In this document: positions 6,716 through 43,545 of the stretch, in pieces
Layout of the letters: the number at the start of each line of letters is the position of its first letter
Position numbering within the stretch: position 1 is the stretch's first letter
From: Enterobacter phage vB_Ent31
Sequence record: OR567511.1
DNA: 64,000 nucleotides
Direction: 5' to 3' (one strand)
Program-made: the position numbers and the translations under genes
The notes under the pieces: model-generated
Told to the model about the DNA's origin: nothing
The model's database searches: none
The model's input: only the letters and a program-made list of their open reading frames with translations

Positions 6716-7201
6716 TTATTCAGGATGTTCATTGTGTTCCTCATTCCAAGTTCCGCTGTTAATCCACAGCCTTTGATTATCACTGCCTCTCCAAAGCTTT
6801 TTAGTTGGTAGAGACTGTTCATATTTACCATCGATAATAACATCAACATAATTTAGCAGTTCCAAGTCCTTGATATCTTCGAACTTGTACCCAGTCCACA
6901 TCCAAACATCTTTGTGAGGGTGACTATTATGTAAGCACTTAAGTAGTGCTTCTATAGTTTCTCTATTGTCTGGATAAAGAGGGTCTCCACCGGTAAGAGT
7001 GATTCCTTGAATGTAATCTTTGCTTAAAAGCTCTCTGATTTCTTCAATGGTTTCACCGGTGAACTCTGTTCCATTACGCGGATTCCATGTAGATTTATTG
7101 TAACATCCTTCGCATTTATGCAAACACCCGGTGACGAAAAGAACGACCCTGCAACCAGGGCCATTCACAAAATCACAAGGATAGATTCTGTCATACTTCA
7201 C
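6716..7201 (-). CDS. nrdG: anaerobic ribonucleotide reductase activating protein (radical SAM)
   Basis: MKYDRIYPCDFVNGPGCRVVLFVTGCLHKCEGCYN... is near-identical to the T4 NrdG N-terminus, with the CxxxCxxC radical SAM motif. Confidence 0.92.
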   Translation of the reverse strand: MKYDRIYPCDFVNGPGCRVVLFVTGCLHKCEGCYNKSTWNPRNGTEFTGETIEEIRELLSKDYIQGITLTGGDPLYPDNRETIEALLKCLHNSHPHKDVWMWTGYKFEDIKDLELLNYVDVIIDGKYEQSLPTKKLWRGSDNQRLWINSGTWNEEHNEHPE

Positions 7202-9020
7202 AGTGTTTCGTCCTGTGCATTATTTCTTTGTTCTTGCCAAGATTAAATCCGCGTTCAGACGGATTACCAAGATATCCACAAGTGCGTCTGATTGTGTTCA
7301 TCTTTTTAGGGTCTGATTCACCGCATTCATGACAGACGAATCCATCTTCAGTTGGAGTCATTTCATGAGTTGAACCGCATGTAAAGCACTTATCAACCGG
7401 CATGTTCACACCGAAGTAATCAAGATGCTCAACAGCATAATCCCATACAGCTTCAAGGCCTTTGAGATTGTTCTTCATATCAGGAAGTTCTACATAACTG
7501 ATATGACCACCTTTGGCAATAAAGTGGAAAATAGATTCACGGTCAATTTTACCGAATGGAGAAATCTTTTCTTCTACTGAAACATGGAAGCTGTTGGTGT
7601 ACCACCCTTTATCGGTGACGCCTTTAATGTCACCATGGACTTCAGCATCAATCTTACAGAAGCGATAACACAAGTTCTCTGCTGGAGTTGAATAAAGGCT
7701 AAAAGCAAATCCAGTTTCTTTAGTCCATTCAGCGAGATAATCATTCAAGCATTTCAGAAGAAGCTTACCGATATCAGCACCAAGAAGAGTTTGAACTTCA
7801 TGGATTCCAATATACCCTAATGAAATTGAAGAACGACCATTTCGGAAGATGTCGAGAATCTCGTCATTTGGCTTAAGACGAACACCAAAAGCGCCTTCTT
7901 GATAAAGAATAGGAGCTACCGAAGCTGTTACACCACGGAGTGATTCAATACGAGCCAAAAGAGCTTCTTTACAAATCTTCAAACGGTCATCAAGAATATG
8001 GAAGAACTTAGTCAAATCTGGACGACCATCAACCATACAATCGAGTGCTACTCGTGGAAGGTTAATTGTCACTACGCCAAGATTATTACGTCCGTCAAGA
8101 ATTTCTTCACCGTCTTTGTTCTTCCATACGCCAAGGAATGAACGACATCCCATTGGAGAAACTGGAACAGAAGAACCAGTGATTAGACGGTTATTCTTTG
8201 AACTAATGATGTCAGGATACATTCGTTTACTTGCACATTCCAATGCAAGTTGTTTGATGTCATAATTCACATCAGTTGGATGAAGGTTAATTCCTTCTTC
8301 AACAAACATAACGAGCTTAGGAAAAATTGGAGTGATTCCGTCTCGTCCAAGGCCTTTGATTCTATTTTTGAGAATAGCTTTTTGAATCATTCGTTCATAA
8401 TCGCTTGTACCAGTACCAAAGGTAATTGTCACGAATGGAGTTTGTCCATTTGAACTGAACAGAGTATTGACTTCATATTCATAAGCCTGGAATGCATCAT
8501 ATACGTCTTTTTCTGTTTTCTCAATCGCGTATACGTAGTCATTGACGTGCTCAATACCGTATCTTTCTGCATCACGTAAATGCTTAAAGAAAGTCTTCTC
8601 TACAAAAGGAGCAAGCACAACATCAACATTAGCAAATGTCGTTCCACCGTATTGATGAGAAGCTACTTGAGCAGTGATTTGAGCCATGATAGCAGTTGCT
8701 ACACCAATTGACTTTGGAGTCTCAATTTGAGCATTACCAAGTTTAAATCCATTGCTGAGCATACCCTTCAAATCGACTAAGCAACAGTTAGTGAATGGAA
8801 GAGCTGGAGAATAGTCTAAGTCATGAAAATGAATAAGACCTTTATCATGAGCATTTAGAACAGTAGGAGAGATAACCTGACGAGCAATGTGTTTTGAAAC
8901 AATTCCTGCCATCAGGTCTCGTTGAGTTGGAAAAACACGAGAATCTTTATTAGCATTCTCATTAAGTAAGTCTTTGTTGGTACGGTTGATTAAACCCTGG
9001 ATTTCTGATTCAATTGTCAT
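7191..9020 (-). CDS. nrdD: anaerobic ribonucleoside-triphosphate reductase
   Basis: 609 aa. C-terminal glycyl-radical region RTCGYLG and a zinc ribbon CxxC...CxxC. T4-like position. The single ORF is uninterrupted, so there is no sunY-type intron. Confidence 0.95.
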   Translation of the reverse strand: MTIESEIQGLINRTNKDLLNENANKDSRVFPTQRDLMAGIVSKHIARQVISPTVLNAHDKGLIHFHDLDYSPALPFTNCCLVDLKGMLSNGFKLGNAQIETPKSIGVATAIMAQITAQVASHQYGGTTFANVDVVLAPFVEKTFFKHLRDAERYGIEHVNDYVYAIEKTEKDVYDAFQAYEYEVNTLFSSNGQTPFVTITFGTGTSDYERMIQKAILKNRIKGLGRDGITPIFPKLVMFVEEGINLHPTDVNYDIKQLALECASKRMYPDIISSKNNRLITGSSVPVSPMGCRSFLGVWKNKDGEEILDGRNNLGVVTINLPRVALDCMVDGRPDLTKFFHILDDRLKICKEALLARIESLRGVTASVAPILYQEGAFGVRLKPNDEILDIFRNGRSSISLGYIGIHEVQTLLGADIGKLLLKCLNDYLAEWTKETGFAFSLYSTPAENLCYRFCKIDAEVHGDIKGVTDKGWYTNSFHVSVEEKISPFGKIDRESIFHFIAKGGHISYVELPDMKNNLKGLEAVWDYAVEHLDYFGVNMPVDKCFTCGSTHEMTPTEDGFVCHECGESDPKKMNTIRRTCGYLGNPSERGFNLGKNKEIMHRTKHCEV

Positions 9021-37961: not shown

Positions 37962-38037
37962 TGGTGCCGATTGCAGGAGTCGAACCCGCGGCATCTTCAT
38001 TACAAGTGAAGCGCTCTACCAGCTGAGCTAAATCGGC
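37962..38037 (-). tRNA. tRNA-Thr (anticodon TGT)
   Basis: Reverse complement GCCGATTTAGCTCAGCTGGTAGAGCGCTTCACTTGTAATGAAGATGCCGCGGGTTCGACTCCTGCAATCGGCACCA has canonical arms and encoded CCA. Confidence 0.9.
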
Positions 38038-38039
38038 TT

Positions 38040-38137
38040 AAGACGGAAATAAGGATTCGAACCTTATGTAGTTGCACAGACGTATCTGCCGTTGAATTCC
38101 TCACTAAGTTTAAGCAACTATTCCCGGGGTCTTAATT
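38040..38137 (-). ncRNA. tRNA-like element / small stable RNA candidate (T arm present, cloverleaf not resolved)
   Basis: Contains TAAGGTTCGAATCCTTA (T arm) and a possible acceptor CGGGAAT/ATTTCCG, but no canonical D or anticodon arm. ~98 nt. Wedged between tRNA-Thr and tRNA-Leu. Confidence 0.35.
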
Positions 38138-38222
38138 TGGTGCATCAAGAGGGATTCGAACCCTCAATCCTTTCGGCGGAAGATTTTAAGTCTTCTGTGT
38201 ATACCAGTTCCACCATTGATGC
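38138..38222 (-). tRNA. tRNA-Leu (anticodon TAA), class II
   Basis: Reverse complement GCATCAATGGTGGAACTGGTATACACAGAAGACTTAAAATCTTCCGCCGAAAGGATTGAGGGTTCGAATCCCTCTTGATGCACCA with long variable arm. Confidence 0.9.
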
Positions 38223-38228
38223 GAAATT

Positions 38229-38313
38229 TGGAGCTAGGAGTGAGATTCGAACTCACGAAGGGATACCCGGCGGATTTGCAATCCGCTGCCTTTGGCCACT
38301 CAGCAACCCTAGC
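38229..38313 (-). tRNA. tRNA with Cys-type anticodon arm (GCA) and discriminator U, but an 85-nt class-II-like architecture (13-nt variable arm)
   Basis: Reverse complement GCTAGGGTTGCTGAGTGGCCAAAGGCAGCGGATTGCAAATCCGCCGGGTATCCCTTCGTGAGTTCGAATCTCACTCCTAGCTCCA. The anticodon arm GCGGATTGCAAATCCG is as recalled for E. coli tRNA-Cys. Confidence 0.7.
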
Positions 38314-38317
38314 AAAT

Positions 38318-38396
38318 TGGTCGAGGTAGAGGGATTCGAACCCGTCGACCTGTGGATTAGAAGTCCACTGCTCTATCCAGCTGAGCTATACCCCGA
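38318..38396 (-). tRNA. tRNA-Arg (anticodon TCT)
   Basis: Reverse complement ...CGGGGTATAGCTCAGCTGGATAGAGCAGTGGACTTCTAATCCACAGGTCGACGGGTTCGAATCCCTCTACCTCGACCA. Confidence 0.85.
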
Positions 38397-38500
38397 GTGT
38401 GTTCAGACAGGACTCGAACCTGTAAGCATGTTCTTGCGGCGTTTTACCACCATCGTCAGCGTATGATTCAATACGCGAACTCAAAAGGTGTTGGACCCCT
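38397..38500 (-). ncRNA. tRNA-like remnant / small RNA candidate (T arm ACAGG-TTCGAGT-CCTGT, no matching acceptor)
   Basis: The T-arm motif sits immediately 5' of tRNA-Arg but a cloverleaf could not be completed. Could be a T4 rnaC/rnaD-type stable RNA or a pseudo-tRNA. Confidence 0.25.
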
Positions 38501-38535
38501 TGTCTACCAATTTCAGCACTGAACAACTTTATTTA

Positions 38536-38763
38536 TTACATATCAACTTGTGTAAACCAGTTGATTTTGAAATACTCATCAAAATGAAGAGCAGGCTCAA
38601 CTTGAGTATCCTCCTCAAGAAGAATTAAATTCTTTCTTACAAGAGGGTCAAGATGAGTTGTGTTTAAGCAACTATCATGCCAATATGTAAGTACTCTATT
38701 AGATTCGGCGGTATCAACAAGATAACGAACATTCATATCAGGATGTCGGTACAGATTAATCAT
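38536..38763 (-). CDS. hypothetical protein (75 aa)
   Basis: ORF track. Confidence 0.45.
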   Translation of the reverse strand: MINLYRHPDMNVRYLVDTAESNRVLTYWHDSCLNTTHLDPLVRKNLILLEEDTQVEPALHFDEYFKINWFTQVDM

Positions 38764-38766
38764 AAT

Positions 38767-39216
38767 CTATTTCTCTTGAAGCATTTTGCGTAAACGATAG
38801 AGCTGATTACAAAATTCTTTTTCAGTCAAAACTGTTTCGGAGATTTTGTTCTTGCCCATACTGTGAGTTAATGTTGCGTTACGAGTGGCAATTAATGCTT
38901 TTTGGAATCCAGTGTTTTGAGAAAGTGCATCATATGCTCCAGTTAAAAGATTCTGGTATGCTTCAGATGCTCGATGAATAGGAACACCCTTCCAATAAAG
39001 GGTTTGAGTAGGCCACCAACGTTTCTTCTTGCCTTTGAACTTTGCTGCCTTTCCAACTAAAGTGCAAACATGAGCTTGCATTTCAGGGTTAGAAAATTTG
39101 AGGGATTGTAAGAATCCCTCCATTGATGCACATTCTACATCATCGTAAACGAAAGCATGTGGTGCAAAGTTACTTAAAGCACAAGAAGGATATGAACTTC
39201 CAGAGCCAATGTCCAT
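38767..39216 (-). CDS. hypothetical protein (149 aa)
   Basis: ORF track. Confidence 0.5.
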   Translation of the reverse strand: MDIGSGSSYPSCALSNFAPHAFVYDDVECASMEGFLQSLKFSNPEMQAHVCTLVGKAAKFKGKKKRWWPTQTLYWKGVPIHRASEAYQNLLTGAYDALSQNTGFQKALIATRNATLTHSMGKNKISETVLTEKEFCNQLYRLRKMLQEK

Positions 39217-39447
39217 TTAATTACCGTGAGATATTCTAGAAGGTTTCTTACCAAAATAATATTCATATGAGCCATCTAAACGACCTGCTTTAGTGCGGCA
39301 ATATGAATCCCGTTTCTTATAATGCCGCCATTCATCATTGTATCTTGGACGACGGTCAGCGATTAAAATCTCTAATGGCCAACCAGGCGCAAAGGAACGG
39401 AGCCGTTCGACTTTTCTAATGTATCTTTTCTTTAAGATTTTCTTCAT
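39217..39447 (-). CDS. hypothetical basic protein (76 aa)
   Basis: ORF track. Arg/Lys-rich. Confidence 0.45.
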   Translation of the reverse strand: MKKILKKRYIRKVERLRSFAPGWPLEILIADRRPRYNDEWRHYKKRDSYCRTKAGRLDGSYEYYFGKKPSRISHGN

Positions 39448-39665
39448 ATAGATTCCGACATTACGTGAGTAGTTCTCTTTCTGATTGTAAATTGAGTTAA
39501 TTCATCAACTTCACCACAACGCCAAGCGTCATCTTCAGTTTCAAAACCAAGAGCCTCAAATAGGTTACCTAAACGCCAACCTTCGTCAAACTCGGGGTCT
39601 CCTGAAAAATAGTAATAGTAATCGGCAGTTACTAAATCTTGAATTACAAAATCAAACTTTTCCAT
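39444..39665 (-). CDS. hypothetical acidic protein (73 aa)
   Basis: ORF track. Confidence 0.45.
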   Translation of the reverse strand: MEKFDFVIQDLVTADYYYYFSGDPEFDEGWRLGNLFEALGFETEDDAWRCGEVDELTQFTIRKRTTHVMSESI

Positions 39666-40162
39666 CAGATACTTACCACAGTAATAGCTTCAGGAGCTTT
39701 AGGAATAACGATATCTTCTTCGATGTAGAAGAGCTTAAATTTTTCAGCTACACGCATGAAGTCAGTATCATAACCAACTGGAGTTCCAATCAATTCTTGG
39801 ATTTTATCCATCACTTTATACTGAACTTGATAGAAATCTTCAAGACGAGCATCGAATTCATCTTCAGTATAATTGCCTTCTGGGATTACAAAGCCAAGCA
39901 CTTCTGAACAGAACTCTGGAGTGATTTCTTCATTTTCAACACAATATTCAAAGAAAGCATCACCGGAATAATCTTCGTTACCCATTCCATTAGGGTCTGA
40001 ATTATCAGACGCGAAACATTTCGCAACGGCACACCAACCTGAAATGTGTCTAGCATTTACATTATAAATCACATTCTCTTGATAATCATCGCCGTCGTTT
40101 TCCCATGATACACATGATACTGCATAGCCTTTAGGGATAGTTTGACCAAAGCGGAGTTCCAT
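39665..40162 (-). CDS. hypothetical acidic protein (165 aa)
   Basis: ORF track. Confidence 0.5.
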   Translation of the reverse strand: MELRFGQTIPKGYAVSCVSWENDGDDYQENVIYNVNARHISGWCAVAKCFASDNSDPNGMGNEDYSGDAFFEYCVENEEITPEFCSEVLGFVIPEGNYTEDEFDARLEDFYQVQYKVMDKIQELIGTPVGYDTDFMRVAEKFKLFYIEEDIVIPKAPEAITVVSI

Positions 40163-40172
40163 AATATTTCCT

Positions 40173-40577
40173 TCAATTAAATGGTGGAAGTGGTTTCATG
40201 TACAAATCTATCAACATACGCCATTTAGCAATTACTTCAGCATACGTATCATTGCATAAAAATCGTGTGATGTCAGAATAATCAATTGCTGGTAGCGGAG
40301 TTAAATGATTCATCAATTCGCGAGGAAATTGATTAAAGCATTTCATCATATCTTTGTAAACATAATCAAGTAAGTCTTGAACAGAGAAGAACTCAGTGTT
40401 TCGTCCTTCTTTGGAATACCGATATTTCAGAAATTTCCAATGGCCGGAGTCTCTGTCTTGAGTGAATGCGTAGTCACTATGTAACATGACATTACGAACT
40501 AAATCTTCAGAGAAGAAGATGGAGTGAGTGCAACCATAATAAATCATAATATTTTCCTCAGAATTTGGTGGCCCCAT
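40173..40577 (-). CDS. hypothetical protein (134 aa); 5' end abuts/overlaps the 3' end of tRNA-Met
   Basis: ORF track. Confidence 0.45.
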   Translation of the reverse strand: MGPPNSEENIMIYYGCTHSIFFSEDLVRNVMLHSDYAFTQDRDSGHWKFLKYRYSKEGRNTEFFSVQDLLDYVYKDMMKCFNQFPRELMNHLTPLPAIDYSDITRFLCNDTYAEVIAKWRMLIDLYMKPLPPFN

Positions 40578-40641
40578 CCGGATTCGAACCGAAAACCTAC
40601 CAGTTATGAGCCGGGTGCTCTACCAATTGAGCTATAGGGCC
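40566..40641 (-). tRNA. tRNA-Met or Ile2-type (anticodon CAT)
   Basis: Reverse complement GGCCCTATAGCTCAATTGGTAGAGCACCCGGCTCATAACTGGTAGGTTTTCGGTTCGAATCCGGATGGGGCCACCA. The GGCCC acceptor resembles lysidine-type Ile2. Confidence 0.8.
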
Positions 40642-40665
40642 AAAGTCCTCCGAAGAGGACGAATG

Positions 40666-40890
40666 TTATTCAACCATGAAATCTGCTACTTCATCAAAGT
40701 CGTTATCAATAACAACAGTAAATGGCAGAGCTTCATCGCTTGTTTTGATAGTCAGCTTAACGAAGCCATCGACAGTTTCAACCAAACCTACAATTTTATC
40801 AGAACGTACTACAGCACGAGCTACGTCAACAATTTTACCAGTCAGTGCAAATGTAGCGATTTGGTTAACTTCAACAACGATACGTTTCAT
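40666..40890 (-). CDS. hypothetical protein (74 aa)
   Basis: ORF track, with promoter at 40902-40935. Confidence 0.5.
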   Translation of the reverse strand: MKRIVVEVNQIATFALTGKIVDVARAVVRSDKIVGLVETVDGFVKLTIKTSDEALPFTVVIDNDFDEVADFMVE

Positions 40891-40931
40891 TCTTTTTCCT
40901 TAGTGGTTTTGATGTAGTAATAATAACATCA

Positions 40932-41489
40932 TTATTTTAAAGCGTAATATCTGAACGGATTGATATGAAATGATAACATTGCTCTGTCATTCTTTTCAGG
41001 CTTATCAACTTCAGATTTCAGTTTCCACCCACAGTAAACTCGTAAGCAGAATTGAATTTTTCCAATTTTAAGCCAAGGCTGATATCCAAATACACCCCAA
41101 GCTGATTCATTCCACATAAGCAACCAACCGTTAGATTTACCGTTAGATTCTACAGTCGGATTGCCCTTCCATTTAAACTCTGAAGTAGCTTCTCGTCCAA
41201 GAACATAATAAGCAAAGTTATATGCTTTATTTCGCCATAGCCATGCTACGCGTTGCATATATTTTCCAACGATCGGAATTTTACGAATCTTTTCCCAGCG
41301 CTTAACATGACCGCCATCTCCGTCAATTGGATTATCAAATGTCATCATCCAATTGAATCCATATGGAAGTTTTCCGCTAACTTCATTATAGAATGGAACT
41401 ACAAATGGAGCAAGCAAAATAGCTAGCACGCCAGTAATCCAATCAAGTGGTACAAGAACAATATAACTTAAGTATTTTAGCAGTTTCAT
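40932..41489 (-). CDS. membrane-anchored hypothetical protein (~185 aa; start moved to MKLLKYL)
   Basis: The ORF-track start at 41591 overlaps tRNA-Phe, so the internal Met at ~41489 was used. One N-terminal TM helix. Trp/Tyr-rich. Confidence 0.5.
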   Translation of the reverse strand: MKLLKYLSYIVLVPLDWITGVLAILLAPFVVPFYNEVSGKLPYGFNWMMTFDNPIDGDGGHVKRWEKIRKIPIVGKYMQRVAWLWRNKAYNFAYYVLGREATSEFKWKGNPTVESNGKSNGWLLMWNESAWGVFGYQPWLKIGKIQFCLRVYCGWKLKSEVDKPEKNDRAMLSFHINPFRYYALK

Positions 41490-41556
41490 AGTAGTCTCCT
41501 TTGACACTCTATTTATGCTAAAAAGCCCGAACAGATTTCTCTGCTCGGGCGTTGTT

Positions 41557-41631
41557 TGGTGGGAAGTGTTGGAATCGAACCAACCTCTCATGCTCTTCAG
41601 GCACGCGCTAATCCATCTCAGCTAACTTCCC
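41557..41631 (-). tRNA. tRNA-Phe (GAA)
   Basis: Reverse complement GGGAAGTTAGCTGAGATGGATTAGCGCGTGCCTGAAGAGCATGAGAGGTTGGTTCGATTCCAACACTTCCCACCA. Confidence 0.85.
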
Positions 41632-41632
41632 T

Positions 41633-41709
41633 TGGTCTCCATACGAGGATTTGAACCTCGGACCCTCTGGTCCCAAACCAGATGCTCTACCAGACTGAGC
41701 TACACGGAG
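41633..41709 (-). tRNA. tRNA-Pro (TGG)
   Basis: Reverse complement CTCCGTGTAGCTCAGTCTGGTAGAGCATCTGGTTTGGGACCAGAGGGTCCGAGGTTCAAATCCTCGTATGGAGACCA. 1-nt spacer to tRNA-Phe, so a dimeric precursor is likely. Confidence 0.85.
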
Positions 41710-41803
41710 ATATTTTTCAGGATGGACGCCACTCTACATTTATGGGTCGAGTCTCCATCATAAAACGTCACGGTCCTCGGCGATTTTCCGTGGTCTGAAA
41801 ATT

Positions 41804-41878
41804 TGGAGCATCCAGAGAGAATCGAACTCTCATCTACTGGGTGGAAGCCAGTCATAATAGCCGCTATACGATGGATGC
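41804..41878 (-). tRNA. tRNA-Gly (TCC)
   Basis: Reverse complement GCATCCATCGTATAGCGGCTATTATGACTGGCTTCCACCCAGTAGATGAGAGTTCGATTCTCTCTGGATGCTCCA. Confidence 0.85.
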
Positions 41879-41883
41879 AAATT

Positions 41884-41958
41884 TGGCAGGCCCTGAAGGA
41901 ATCGAACCCTCATCACTGGGTTTGGAGCCCAGCATAATAGCCGTTATACTAAGAACCT
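41884..41958 (-). tRNA. tRNA-Trp (CCA)
   Basis: Reverse complement AGGTTCTTAGTATAACGGCTATTATGCTGGGCTCCAAACCCAGTGATGAGGGTTCGATTCCTTCAGGGCCTGCCA. Discriminator G. Confidence 0.85.
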
Positions 41959-41964
41959 GTTATT

Positions 41965-42040
41965 TGGTGGGAGTAACTGGACTCGAACCAGTCACCGCTC
42001 GATTATCGGTCGAGAGCTCTACCAAATGAGATATACTCCC
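41965..42040 (-). tRNA. tRNA-Ile (GAT), copy 1
   Basis: Reverse complement GGGAGTATATCTCATTTGGTAGAGAGCTCTCGACCGATAATCGAGCGGTGACTGGTTCGAGTCCAGTTACTCCCACCA. Confidence 0.8.
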
Positions 42041-42106
42041 ATGGAAAGCTAATCATCTAATTGTTGATGTACCACTGCTATGGACAGTGTTTAACTTTCA
42101 TAAATT

Positions 42107-42191
42107 TGGCGGAGAGTAAAGGAGTTGAACCCTCACCGTTTCCGATGGCCCGGATTTCAAGTCCGGTTTGCTACCACTAGCGCTACTCTCC
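42107..42191 (-). tRNA. tRNA-Ser (TGA), class II
   Basis: Reverse complement GGAGAGTAGCGCTAGTGGTAGCAAACCGGACTTGAAATCCGGGCCATCGGAAACGGTGAGGGTTCAACTCCTTTACTCTCCGCCA. Confidence 0.85.
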
Positions 42192-42197
42192 AGTATT

Positions 42198-42283
42198 TGG
42201 TGAAGGAAGTGTCATATAGACACAATTCGCTTAGCGACAGCCACAGCGTTTTGCGGGCCGTGTATTTTTCCACCATTCCTTCA
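42198..42283 (-). ncRNA. tRNA-like small stable RNA candidate (86 nt, acceptor GAAGGAA/TTCCTTC + ACCA, non-canonical T loop)
   Basis: Reverse complement TGAAGGAATGGTGGAAAAATACACGGCCCGCAAAACGCTGTGGCTGTCGCTAAGCGAATTGTGTCTATATGACACTTCCTTCACCA. Paired termini and an internal GTGTC/GACAC hairpin, but no TTCRA T loop. Same strand and spacing as the flanking tRNAs. Confidence 0.4.
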
Positions 42284-42287
42284 TTGT

Positions 42288-42363
42288 TGGGGTGACCGGA
42301 CGGATTTGAACCGTCGACGGCAGCAATCACAATGCTGAGTTCTACCAACTGAACTACGGCCAC
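42288..42363 (-). tRNA. tRNA-His (GTG)
   Basis: Reverse complement GTGGCCGTAGTTCAGTTGGTAGAACTCAGCATTGTGATTGCTGCCGTCGACGGTTCAAATCCGTCCGGTCACCCCA. Discriminator C. Confidence 0.85.
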
Positions 42364-42455
42364 ATCAATATTCACTCCATCATGAGGACTTCATACGAAA
42401 TTAAGAGAAGAATGATTAGTTCAACCCCTGTAGACGCGTTGAATGAATATTAATT

Positions 42456-42530
42456 TGGCTGGACTATCTGGATTCGAACCAGAGATACCGGAGTCAAAGG
42501 CCGGTGACTTAACCGCTTGTCTATAGTCCA
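42456..42530 (-). tRNA. tRNA-Gln (TTG)
   Basis: Reverse complement TGGACTATAGACAAGCGGTTAAGTCACCGGCCTTTGACTCCGGTATCTCTGGTTCGAATCCAGATAGTCCAGCCA. Similar to E. coli tRNA-Gln. Confidence 0.85.
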
Positions 42531-42536
42531 ATTGTT

Positions 42537-42612
42537 TGGAGGCGGGTGATGGACTCGAACCATCGCGTAACGGGATATGAACCCGTCATTCTACCAACTG
42601 AAGTTAACCCGC
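42537..42612 (-). tRNA. tRNA-Met-type (CAT), second CAT tRNA (GGG/CCC anticodon stem)
   Basis: Reverse complement GCGGGTTAACTTCAGTTGGTAGAATGACGGGTTCATATCCCGTTACGCGATGGTTCGAGTCCATCACCCGCCTCCA. Confidence 0.75.
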
Positions 42613-42770
42613 ATTTATCCGGGTTCTTGAAGTACTAACAAGTAGCTTGATGTAGAACACGCTAAAGATATAATCTTCCGAATATAGAGCTTATCCCGTG
42701 GGAACAAACAGCTTCGTCCTCGGCATTATCTTATAGGACTCAAACTCATCTTCAAGAACTGCCTCATATT

Positions 42771-42847
42771 TGGCAGTGCTGACGGGTTTCGAACCCGCGA
42801 TCTCTCCCGTGACAGGGGAGTGTCTTGACCATCTCGACTACAGCACT
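42771..42847 (-). tRNA. tRNA-Asp (GTC)
   Basis: Reverse complement AGTGCTGTAGTCGAGATGGTCAAGACACTCCCCTGTCACGGGAGAGATCGCGGGTTCGAAACCCGTCAGCACTGCCA. Confidence 0.85.
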
Positions 42848-43093
42848 ATAAATTTACTTTCGTGAGTATGGGATTACCCTCAAGCCTTCCGGAAAGCTGA
42901 ATAGGCGTTATTGGCTCTCATATACCCGTGCACAGATATAATCTTCATTAACACAATAACTTCATCAATATACTCCGAAAGTAAACTTTCGGCGCCGTAT
43001 TTAATTTGAGCTATGTGGTTATCGTTGAGGGAACTCATAGTCAGGGATTAAAGTGCCGACGACTTTGTCAGAACGTCTTCCAACTTCTATATT

Positions 43094-43178
43094 TGGCGGG
43101 TCGTGCAGGTATCGAACCTGCCTAGTCATTTCTGACACGGATTAACAGTCCGCCGCTTACCCTCTCAGCCAACGACCC
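43094..43178 (-). tRNA. tRNA with Asn-type anticodon arm (GTT) and discriminator G, but 85 nt with an extra 15-nt variable stem-loop
   Basis: Reverse complement GGGTCGTTGGCTGAGAGGGTAAGCGGCGGACTGTTAATCCGTGTCAGAAATGACTAGGCAGGTTCGATACCTGCACGACCCGCCA. The anticodon arm GCGGACTGTTAATCCGT is as recalled for E. coli tRNA-Asn. Confidence 0.7.
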
Positions 43179-43184
43179 TAAATT

Positions 43185-43259
43185 TGGTTCTCCGTAAGAG
43201 AATTGAACTCTTCTTTCCGACGTGAAAGGTCGGCGTCCTAACCGATAGACGAACGGAGA
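43185..43259 (-). tRNA. tRNA-Glu (TTC)
   Basis: Reverse complement TCTCCGTTCGTCTATCGGTTAGGACGCCGACCTTTCACGTCGGAAAGAAGAGTTCAATTCTCTTACGGAGAACCA. Confidence 0.85.
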
Positions 43260-43260
43260 T

Positions 43261-43337
43261 TGGTAGGACACGAAAGATTCGAACTTTCGACACCCGGATT
43301 AAAAGTCCGGTGCTCTAACCAGCTGAGCTAGTGTCCT
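43261..43337 (-). tRNA. tRNA-Lys (TTT)
   Basis: Reverse complement AGGACACTAGCTCAGCTGGTTAGAGCACCGGACTTTTAATCCGGGTGTCGAAAGTTCGAATCTTTCGTGTCCTACCA. 1-nt spacer to tRNA-Glu. Confidence 0.85.
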
Positions 43338-43375
43338 GTAGATATTTATAATATCAAAAATATCTTTAAGCAAAT

Positions 43376-43451
43376 TGGTGGGAATAACTGGACTCGAACC
43401 AGTGACCTAACGATTATCGGTCGTTTGCTCTACCAACTGAGCTATATTCCC
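43376..43451 (-). tRNA. tRNA-Ile (GAT), copy 2 (diverged duplicate of 41965..42040)
   Basis: Reverse complement GGGAATATAGCTCAGTTGGTAGAGCAAACGACCGATAATCGTTAGGTCACTGGTTCGAGTCCAGTTATTCCCACCA. Confidence 0.8.
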
Positions 43452-43457
43452 GGAATT

Positions 43458-43545
43458 TGGTGGGGAGTGATGGAGTCGAACCACCCGAGTCGCAATGACA
43501 ACAGATTTACAGTCTGCACCGCTACCTCTACGGAATTAACTCCCC
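43458..43545 (-). tRNA. tRNA-Tyr (GTA), class II
   Basis: Reverse complement GGGGAGTTAATTCCGTAGAGGTAGCGGTGCAGACTGTAAATCTGTTGTCATTGCGACTCGGGTGGTTCGACTCCATCACTCCCCACCA. Confidence 0.85.

Follow-up and report, generated by a model that had tools for sequence, protein, structure and literature searches.

Positions 43094 to 43178 (minus strand) of a 64,000-nucleotide (nt) stretch of DNA from Enterobacter phage vB_Ent31 (record OR567511.1; the whole stretch is called the window below) hold a gene for a transfer RNA (tRNA) in which the anticodon and discriminator base of asparagine tRNA are joined to the long variable arm of a class II tRNA. Judged from its sequence, the product is almost certainly an ordinary molecule, a tRNA that accepts asparagine, with an architecture that is unexpected, conserved and enriched in phages. 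The reading favoured here, which is given a probability of about 0.7, is that the gene would specify a functional, Asn-accepting, class II-shaped phage tRNA with an arm under structural selection; a role of the altered shape in evading nucleases is weighed separately and lies outside that figure.

In bacteria, tRNA-Sec belongs to class II. So too, in the normal case, do the tRNAs for Leu, Ser and Tyr, the usual bearers of a long variable arm (PMC9976931). No description of a class II-shaped tRNA-Asn, from a phage or from elsewhere, was found in the literature searched, which misses most subscription journals, including the work of the 1980s on the tRNAs of T5 and BF23 and Himeno 1990. Many GenBank records already carry the gene under the label tRNA-Asn.

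Identification of a class II-shaped tRNA-Asn gene

Read on the minus strand, the 85 nt of the gene are GGGUCGUUGGCUGAGAGGGUAAGCGGCGGACUGUUAAUCCGUGUCAGAAAUGACUAGGCAGGUUCGAUACCUGCACGACCCGCCA. ARAGORN called a tRNA-Asn(gtt) on the minus strand with ends exactly at 43094 and 43178, and Rfam family RF00005 matched the same 85 nt with a score of 49.8 bits, where the gathering score for membership is 29. Copies that are 100% identical over the 85 nt are present in Karamvirus genomes and labelled tRNA-Asn. The acceptor stem (7 base pairs, bp) and the T stem (GCAGG/CCUGC, 5 bp) are Watson–Crick paired throughout. An earlier note, made from the letters of the window alone, had proposed an 85-nt tRNA-Asn(GUU) with a long arm, G73 and perfect 7-bp acceptor and 5-bp T stems, and on all of these points ARAGORN, Rfam and the sequence agree.

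The variable region is 15 nt long and forms a stem-loop of its own, which places the molecule in class II (more than 10 nt). Its core is likewise of class II type, with a D stem of only 3 bp (GCU/AGC), a non-Watson–Crick G13.A22 and a purine, G9, at position 9; the run of G residues in the D loop was taken as G18G19. The parts of the cloverleaf are collected in Table 1.

The agreement of two independent tRNA detectors, together with the covariation seen for the extra helix in relatives, puts the gene well beyond chance. Three other readings of the same interval were rejected. The overlapping open reading frames (ORFs), on both strands, are short mechanical ones only; promoter-like and terminator-like sites are about as frequent as shuffled sequence would lead one to expect; and a match of the plus strand to the Rfam family Plastid-ycf2 is noise, its 19.7 bits falling far short of the gathering score of 65.7.

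The extra arm is structurally selected

In the Rfam alignment, 12 extra nucleotides were assigned to the variable region and the anticodon loop was left without insertion. The earlier note had itself named an intron-like placement by a covariance model as one result that would count against its reading; the observed placement contradicts an intron, and the GTCA-GAAA-TGAC hairpin that it described is recovered in the variable region by direct reading, by the Rfam placement and by covariation.

Covariation was analyzed in an alignment of 14 representative phage sequences. Positions of the five-helix structure were paired in 99.4% of cases, compared with 82% after column shuffles and 31–49% when the 3′ partners were slid along the alignment. 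All positions of the variable-arm helix were paired (100%), and each of its four pairs showed double compensatory changes, the stem variants being GUCA/UGAC, GUC/GAC, AUCC/GGAU, GUUC/GAAC, GAGA/UCUC and GAGGA/UCCUC, and RNAalifold recovered the arm de novo. The placement in the variable region, the double changes at 4 pairs and the RNAalifold result together support the extra arm as a genuine, structurally selected feature that is neither an artefact nor an intron, and the opinion of the earlier note that a random artefact was not at hand is upheld.

A broader data set was assembled from all ARAGORN tRNAs of the fetched loci by an anchor-based parse, and it contained 88 unique long-arm tRNA-Asn sequences. 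For the IMG/VR and genome loci, which had been retrieved by a sequence pattern (GGACTGTTAATCC, a gap of 16–26 nt, then GGTTC), invariance within the anticodon loop, and over part of the T arm, is by construction, and the discriminator, acceptor stem, D arm and variable arm are free to vary. The hairpin of the variable region had a mean stem of 3.52 bp in the 88 sequences and of 2.72 bp after shuffling (standard deviation 0.08), a value of 3.52 being reached in 0 of 500 shuffles. Forty-nine distinct stem sequences were present among the 88. The loop was a tetraloop in 63/88, a GNRA tetraloop in 50/88 (57%), and either GNRA or UUCG in 53/88. A covariance model specific to the family was also built, but with 634 matches it picked up all tRNAs of the loci, and its alignment was set aside.

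Amino acid identity of the long-arm tRNA

Identity as tRNA-Asn resides in the anticodon and G73, and this identity can be moved to a different tRNA body (Giege & Eriani 2023, PMC9976931). Both determinants are present here, as G34 U35 U36 and G73. The anticodon arm had been said in the earlier note to match that of E. coli tRNA-Asn, and this is exact, with G26 and the 17-nt arm identical at 18 of 18 positions. Within the data set the nearest anticodon arms are those of class I Asn tRNAs (mean best identity 0.96).

The discriminator was compared across identities. G73 is found in 86/88 unique long-arm Asn sequences and in 18/18 class I phage Asn sequences, whereas A73 is found in 47/47 phage tRNA-Tyr and in 69/69 phage long-arm tRNA-Leu of the same arrays. 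Tyr identity needs A73 and U35, and A73 is crucial for leucyl-tRNA synthetase (PMC9976931). The gene has G73 and GUU where a tRNA-Tyr would have A73 and GUA, and G73 where a tRNA-Leu would have A73; G73 thus argues against a Tyr or Leu identity of the long-arm tRNA-Asn, as far as sequence determinants can predict.

Serine requires more care. The variable arm is what Ser identity relies on; G73 contributes moderately, and the anticodon is ignored (PMC9976931). G73 is common to Asn and Ser, and therefore does not by itself set charging with Ser aside. The geometry of the arm is more informative. In phage tRNA-Ser the stems are of 4–8 bp and at most one 3′ nucleotide is unpaired in 59/74, while in long-arm Asn the stem is of 4 bp or less in 79/88 and at least 3 nt are unpaired on the 3′ side in 67/88, as in phage tRNA-Tyr. 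The arm in vB_Ent31, with a 4-bp stem at the short end of the Ser range and 3 unpaired 3′ nt, does not have the form of a tRNA-Ser arm.

The pair U1-A72, the determinant in tRNA-Asn for the amidotransferase GatCAB (PMC9976931), occurs in 56/88 long-arm Asn, 9/18 class I Asn and 1/47 Tyr sequences, and is not among the pair types listed for Ser, Leu and Cys. The core of the long-arm sequences often has G13.A22 (44/88) and G9 (42/88), and that of class I phage Asn has C13-G22 (16/18) and A9 (17/18).

Given the Asn determinants, an arm geometry unlike that of Ser and a discriminator unlike that of Tyr and Leu, it is very probable that the phage tRNA is charged with Asn by the asparaginyl-tRNA synthetase (AsnRS) of the host. 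Residual serylation is the main uncertainty, most of all for the actinobacterial forms, in which the stem has 6 bp and 1 nt is unpaired.

Distribution in phages, metagenomic viruses and cells

The 85-mer alone was used as the query against 50,697 phage records. It matched 634 of them, 548 with at least 80% coverage, the taxa with a long-arm tRNA-Asn including T4-like Straboviridae genera, Marfavirus, T5-like Demerecviridae and Stephanstirmvirinae. Representative loci were fetched and ARAGORN was run on them again. A tRNA-Asn(GUU) of 83–86 nt was called in Karamvirus, Klebsiella T4-like phages, Marfavirus, Winklervirus and Aeromonas Biquartavirus, in the T5-like genera Tequintavirus, Epseptimavirus and Novosibvirus, and also in Phapecoctavirus and Justusliebigvirus. 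The annotated 84-nt tRNA-Asn of the Kanagawavirus phage ZX14 received no ARAGORN call; in alignment it has one extra T-loop base.

The pattern given above, with its fixed anticodon loop and partly fixed T arm, was found in more than 120 IMG/VR contigs. When the gap was widened to 6–26 nt, the long form made up 15/120 among the matches listed, and a rough estimate, again among the matches listed, is that about one fifth of those in arrays of at least 5 tRNAs are of the long form. The same pattern in 185,579 bacterial and archaeal species, one genome each, gave 65 stretches only, most of which were non-tRNA sequences or tandem copies of class I tRNAs. Cellular loci with several tRNAs and a long-arm Asn were arrays of about 7–36 genes in Micromonospora/Verrucosispora, Methyloprofundus, Agromyces and several metagenome-assembled genomes. 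No full-length homologue of the 85-mer was found in 5,426 E. coli genomes by distant BLAST, which returned only short T-arm and acceptor matches to tRNA-Lys. Long-arm tRNA-Asn is a widespread family in phages and mobile arrays and is near-absent from ordinary cellular sets, so that the description of the structure in the earlier note as lineage-specific does not stand.

Among the fetched loci, 111 have the long-arm Asn alone and 13 have both Asn types. The T5-like BASEL phages TrudiRoth and SuperGirl carry the long-arm gene, and DaisyDussoix carries the class I type. Phage T5 has a different, class I tRNA-Asn of 78 nt at the corresponding locus, a type present in 225 records. For this reason the experimental annotation notes on turning each T5 tRNA into an amber suppressor could not be applied to the long-arm form. 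In T5 (NC_005859) the class I gene lies at 6953–7030, with its 5′ end overlapped by ORF T5.069 (7007–7525), and in relatives the ORF that overlaps this tRNA-Asn has been labelled either a homing endonuclease or a T5orf172-domain protein. Most T5-like phages have a long-arm Asn in this Cys–Asn position, 8 nt past tRNA-Cys. The arrangement suggests an allele replacement tied to a mobile endonuclease at the Asn locus of T5-like phages.

Several further copies were observed. In Escherichia phage SelmaRatti (positions 151–236 of the fetched locus) the 3′ acceptor strand ACCCGCU is unpaired with GGGUCGU, and in Proteus phage Pm5461 (about 151–193) the 5′ part through the anticodon arm remains; both are decayed long-arm Asn genes and neither has an ARAGORN call. 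Four Micromonospora/Verrucosispora chromosomes have 23–36 tRNA genes in approximately 3.5–6 kb, with a tRNA-Asn of 89–90 nt that has U1-A72 and a Ser-like arm with a 5–6 bp stem and a GNRA loop (GGAA, GUAA or GCAA), three of the four having a single unpaired 3′ nt. In Azoarcus sp. L1K30 (positions 114–200 of the locus) a class I tRNA-Asn has an 11-nt tandem duplication, UCCGUAGGUCA followed by UCCGUAGGUC, that spans the junction of the anticodon stem and the variable loop, in a body 98% identical to a class I IMG/VR copy. It is possible that this is a snapshot of a long variable region arising, or else a damaged gene. The labels in deposited records differ: the gene is ‘tRNA-Asx’ in PG7 (KJ101592/NC_023561) and OSY-STA (MN187969/NC_048808) and ‘tRNA-Cys’ in KpnM6E1 (MT580897), and several other records leave it unannotated.

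The tRNA array around the gene

The gene is the sole tRNA-Asn of a co-directional array (Table 1) in which ARAGORN found 19 tRNA genes and Rfam added one tRNA-Tyr at 43461–43545. Near the gene the order is Tyr-Ile-Lys-Glu-Asn with spacers of 1–38 nt, the distance between tRNA-Glu and the long-arm tRNA-Asn being 6 nt. The tRNA region is 88–98% identical to Enterobacter, Klebsiella and Cronobacter phages of the CC31/PG7/myPSH1140 group, and in Enterobacter phage fGh-Ecl01 (Straboviridae, Tevenvirinae, Karamvirus) the same array is annotated with the gene labelled tRNA-Asn. Asn codons make up 57.7 per 1000 in the long ORFs of the window; in E. coli their usage is approximately 39 per 1000.

A second long-arm tRNA in the array, for Cys (GCA), had been proposed in the earlier note together with the statement that two class I identities, Asn and Cys, have extra arms in one genome; the gene is real by ARAGORN and by Rfam, and the statement is correct. 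In records of cultured phages this tRNA-Cys is far narrower in distribution than the Asn form, with 34 records that are almost all Karamvirus, plus EcS1. The nine unique long-arm tRNA-Cys sequences of the fetched arrays have U73 in 9/9 and a similarly short arm.

The tRNA-Tyr(GUA) added by Rfam (minus strand, 39.1 bits, missed by ARAGORN) has A73 and no encoded CCA, and its variable arm UGUCAUUGCGACUCG is similar to the Asn arm (GUCA...GACU.G). An ORF of 52 amino acids with an ATG start (MSSLNDNHIAQIKYGAESLL..., 42880–43038, minus strand) occupies the gap between tRNA-Asn and tRNA-Asp, where relatives have annotated hypothetical proteins. The array also contains two tRNA-Ile(GAU) genes (41965–42040 and 43376–43451) and two tRNA(CAU) genes (40566–40641 and 42537–42613), one of the latter with an Rfam score of only 44 bits.

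Table 1. Coordinates in the window of the long-arm tRNA-Asn gene, its parts and the surrounding array
Feature	Position	Strand	Basis
Whole tRNA-Asn(GUU) gene, 85 nt, class II shape	43094–43178	minus	ARAGORN; Rfam RF00005; identical annotated copies
Acceptor 5′ strand GGGUCGU (tRNA positions 1–7)	43172–43178	minus	Perfect pairing with 43098–43104; double changes at 6/7 pairs in relatives
U8 G9	43170–43171	minus	Precede D arm
D arm GCU-GAGAGGGUA-AGC	43155–43169	minus	3 Watson–Crick pairs plus G13.A22, read from sequence
G26	43154	minus	Directly after D arm
Anticodon arm GCGGA-CUGUUAA-UCCGU	43137–43153	minus	Identical to E. coli tRNA-Asn
Anticodon GUU	43144–43146	minus	Within anticodon arm
Variable arm, 15 nt	43122–43136	minus	Rfam alignment; covariation; RNAalifold
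Variable-arm stem GUCA/UGAC, 4 bp	43133–43136/43125–43128	minus	
Variable-arm tetraloop GAAA	43129–43132	minus	
Unpaired UAG, 3 nt, 3′ side of variable arm	43122–43124	minus	
T arm GCAGG-UUCGAUA-CCUGC	43105–43121	minus	Sequence; Rfam alignment; covariation
Acceptor 3′ strand ACGACCC	43098–43104	minus	Perfect pairs with 5′ strand
Discriminator G73	43097	minus	
Encoded CCA	43094–43096	minus	
Companion long-arm tRNA-Cys(GCA), 85 nt, U73, 13-nt variable arm CGGGUAUCCCUUC	38229–38313	minus	ARAGORN; Rfam 48.0 bits
Co-directional array, 20 tRNA genes including both long-arm tRNAs	37962–43545	minus	ARAGORN and Rfam

Possible role and origin of the arm

The gene and its array neighbours are presumably transcribed together, and the gene product would act as an elongator tRNA-Asn that reads AAC and AAU and supplements or replaces the tRNA-Asn of the host. 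The marks of Asn, GUU in a host-identical arm and G73, are in this molecule grafted on a class II core with a short, GNRA-capped arm, and relatives with U1-A72 could also use the route through a non-discriminating aspartyl-tRNA synthetase and GatCAB. The arm would alter the shape of the tRNA body. Nucleases or turnover systems of the host or of competitors that read the class I tRNA-Asn body would then spare the phage copy, which the synthetase, the ribosome and the enzymes that modify the anticodon loop would still accept. That the arm is kept as an escape from enzymes recognizing the class I body is the leading guess as to its purpose, and a tentative one.

Some benefit in the phage context is favoured because the structure is common in phages and mobile arrays and essentially absent from core cellular sets, because it persists in very divergent bodies (at 80% identity, 30 clusters are purely long-arm), and because other class I anticodons (Thr, Trp, Glu, Lys, Ile, Cys) carry arms too. 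Evasion of anticodon nucleases was, with a handle for processing or modification, a role that the earlier note had put forward as a possibility, and one point tells against its simplest form. Anticodon nucleases can be evaded through differences in the anticodon loop or stem; here all 18 of 18 positions are those of the host. The stem-loop being that of the host, the evasion by anticodon-loop mutation that has been reported (PMC10264068) is not used, and evasion would need the shape of the body.

Long variable regions were also seen on other class I anticodons in the arrays, with 8 unique Thr(UGU) and 8 unique Ile(UAU) sequences. The Ile(UAU) regions are of 21–25 nt and have a recurring CAGAU(U/A)A motif, and further cases include Trp, Glu, Lys and others. 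The IMG/VR loci were chosen for long-arm Asn, and the frequencies of other armed class I tRNAs are biased to that extent. It could be that the addition of an arm to class I tRNAs, mostly Asn but also Cys, Thr, Trp, Glu, Lys and Ile, is a general strategy of phages and mobile elements, by which their tRNAs are made distinct from those of the host and escape tRNA-targeting immunity, or the destruction of host tRNAs by the phage itself, while still being charged and decoded by host synthetases and ribosomes. This wider proposal is regarded as doubtful.

A number of points weigh against the favoured reading or against the role attached to it. The part played by shape in evasion is something that we infer and nothing else. 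The anticodon stem-loop is identical to that of the host, so nucleases that require only the stem-loop, of which colicin E5 is one, would still cut the phage tRNA, and we know of no defence system that reads the body of tRNA-Asn. The conservation of pairing could reflect structural entrenchment with no benefit from the arm. With regard to charging, AsnRS belongs to class IIb, whose members approach the tRNA from the side of the variable region, where an arm could interfere. A class II body with G73 is the context in which Leu-to-Ser identity switches arise (PMC9976931), and some serylation is possible; in the versions from actinobacterial arrays the arm is Ser-like, with 6 bp in the stem and a single nt unpaired. 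Finally, a minimum free energy fold of the single sequence misses the D and anticodon arms, which is frequent for tRNAs and was treated as uninformative.

One alternative interpretation is that the arm is an entrenched relic, in which a class II ancestor (Tyr-, Ser- or Leu-like) switched identity, or a chimera received an Asn anticodon arm, and an arm of no advantage persisted with a core co-adapted to it. The switch would be a short one. GUU is one base from the Tyr anticodon GUA and one from the Ser anticodon GCU; G73 is typically already in place in tRNA-Ser, and a tRNA-Tyr, with A73, would have to gain it; and the location of Asn identity in the anticodon and base 73 makes such a change easy (PMC9976931). 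The long-arm tRNA-Cys sequences (GCA, U73) follow the same one-step logic. A 3–4 bp stem with 3–4 unpaired 3′ nt is the geometry of phage tRNA-Tyr, and some long-arm Asn sequences have a Tyr-like D arm, CCCGAG..GGG. Long-arm and class I Asn bodies are, moreover, mostly separate lineages (best identity 0.87 long-to-long versus 0.75 long-to-short), a clustering compatible with single or multiple origins. A clear parent is nevertheless lacking: the assignment of one by similarity was abandoned, since body, D-arm and variable-arm neighbours spread over Cys, Leu, Tyr, Ser and Lys, and the nearest bodies are scattered over CysL, Leu, Tyr, Lys and Ser. U1-A72 and the entire anticodon arm are of Asn type, GNRA loops are found in 57% of long-arm Asn versus 4% of phage Tyr, and a neutral leftover would be unlikely to recur for Thr, Trp, Glu, Lys and Ile and yet be near-absent in cells. 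A relic is considered rather unlikely.

It could also be that the arm is a handle for processing, folding or stability, the GNRA hairpin steadying the core or aiding a packed polycistronic transcript and perhaps offsetting host modifications that are missing in a short infection. The dense array, with a neighbour 6 nt away, would fit such a role, as would the stable loops (GNRA or UUCG) of 53/88 arms and the co-occurrence of G13.A22 and G9 with the arm; however, most tRNAs of the same arrays do without one, tRNA-Asn is not known to be particularly unstable, and the proposal is judged improbable.

An altered or dual identity is less probable again. Seryl-tRNA synthetase, being blind to the anticodon, might charge the tRNA partly or wholly, so that Ser would be inserted at Asn codons, a mistranslation either deliberate or tolerated, as with nematode nev-tRNAs or bacterial allo-tRNAs. 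There are precedents of class II tRNAs with non-cognate anticodons (PMC5389517), and the actinobacterial versions, with a 6-bp arm and 1 unpaired nt, also speak for it. The arm here and in most relatives is, however, shorter than that of phage tRNA-Ser and differs in its count of unpaired nucleotides, the Asn-specific U1-A72 has been conserved, as has the Asn anticodon arm identical to that of the host, and in most arrays this is the sole Asn tRNA, so a proteome-wide exchange of Asn for Ser would be costly. Lastly, a dead gene, or a removable intron-like or accidental 15-nt insertion in a decaying tRNA, is a negligible prospect, for although decayed copies exist (SelmaRatti, Pm5461) and the Azoarcus tRNA-Asn shows a tandem duplication in the variable region, all helices are intact and covarying, the insertion lies in the variable region and not at 37/38 with the 7-nt loop CUGUUAA undisturbed, and the structure is conserved in hundreds of phages of different families.

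A functional, Asn-accepting tRNA of class II shape, as favoured here, would be a common component of well-studied phages, among them the T5-like phages of the BASEL collection, Klebsiella T4-like phages and Karamvirus. If the arm is functional, it offers a new handle on why phages carry tRNAs, and the molecule bears on how tRNA-targeting defences tell their substrates apart. AsnRS and cysteinyl-tRNA synthetase probably tolerate a class II body, which would be useful in the engineering of orthogonal tRNAs, and a mischarged form would be a natural device for mistranslation. Annotation pipelines stumble on the gene, as the ‘tRNA-Asx’ and ‘tRNA-Cys’ labels attest.

Comparison with known systems

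The E. coli tRNA-Asn (asnT/U/V/W) used as the reference was checked against 5,425 E. coli genomes, where it has a 100% match labelled tRNA-Asn. It shares with the phage tRNA the GUU anticodon, G26 and the identical 17-nt anticodon arm, G73 and CCA, and on account of these common features the two presumably share the same synthetase and the same codons. The host molecule is otherwise different, with 76 nt, a 5-nt variable loop (AUGUC), a D stem of 4 Watson–Crick pairs, A9 and U1-A72, where the phage tRNA has 85 nt, a 15-nt arm, a 3-bp D stem plus G13.A22, G9 and G1-C72.

Bacterial tRNA-Tyr(GUA) resembles the long-arm Asn in its arm of approximately 3–4 bp followed by 3–4 unpaired nt and in G34 U35, and the two are often neighbours in phage arrays. 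They differ in that tRNA-Tyr has A73 (47/47), A36 and GNRA loops in 4%, and long-arm Asn has G73 (86/88), U36, frequent U1-A72 and GNRA loops in 57%.

Nematode nev-tRNAs retain Leu or Ser identity and so bring about codon reassignment. A long arm combined with a normally class I anticodon is a feature that the phage tRNA shares with the nematode nev-/nov-tRNAs and with the bacterial allo-tRNAs (Mukai et al. 2017, PMC5389517). Allo-tRNAs likewise keep Leu or Ser identity with codons reassigned, and have acceptor/T branches of 8/4 or 9/3 (PMC5389517). The branch of the phage tRNA is 7/5 (7-bp acceptor and 5-bp T stem), and from this together with the Asn identity marks no codon reassignment is predicted.

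The remaining point of comparison is a set of phage tRNAs that are reported to counter defences aimed at tRNAs. They include T5 tRNA-Lys against PARIS (PMC11464382), T5-like tRNA-Tyr against retron-Eco7 PtuAB and tRNA-Lys against PrrC (PMC11555353), and mycobacteriophage tRNAs that evade through mutations in the anticodon loop (PMC10264068). In the one related experiment found, the tRNA-Asn of SP15, which may be of the long-arm or the class I type, gave no rescue from PrrC170. In common with the anti-defence tRNAs, the long-arm tRNA-Asn is a phage copy of a host tRNA in a large array and is structurally unlike its host counterpart. The difference is that those tRNAs are reported to act through changes in the anticodon loop or stem or through overexpression and are backed by rescue experiments, whereas the tRNA-Asn of vB_Ent31 keeps the anticodon arm of the host and adds an arm elsewhere.

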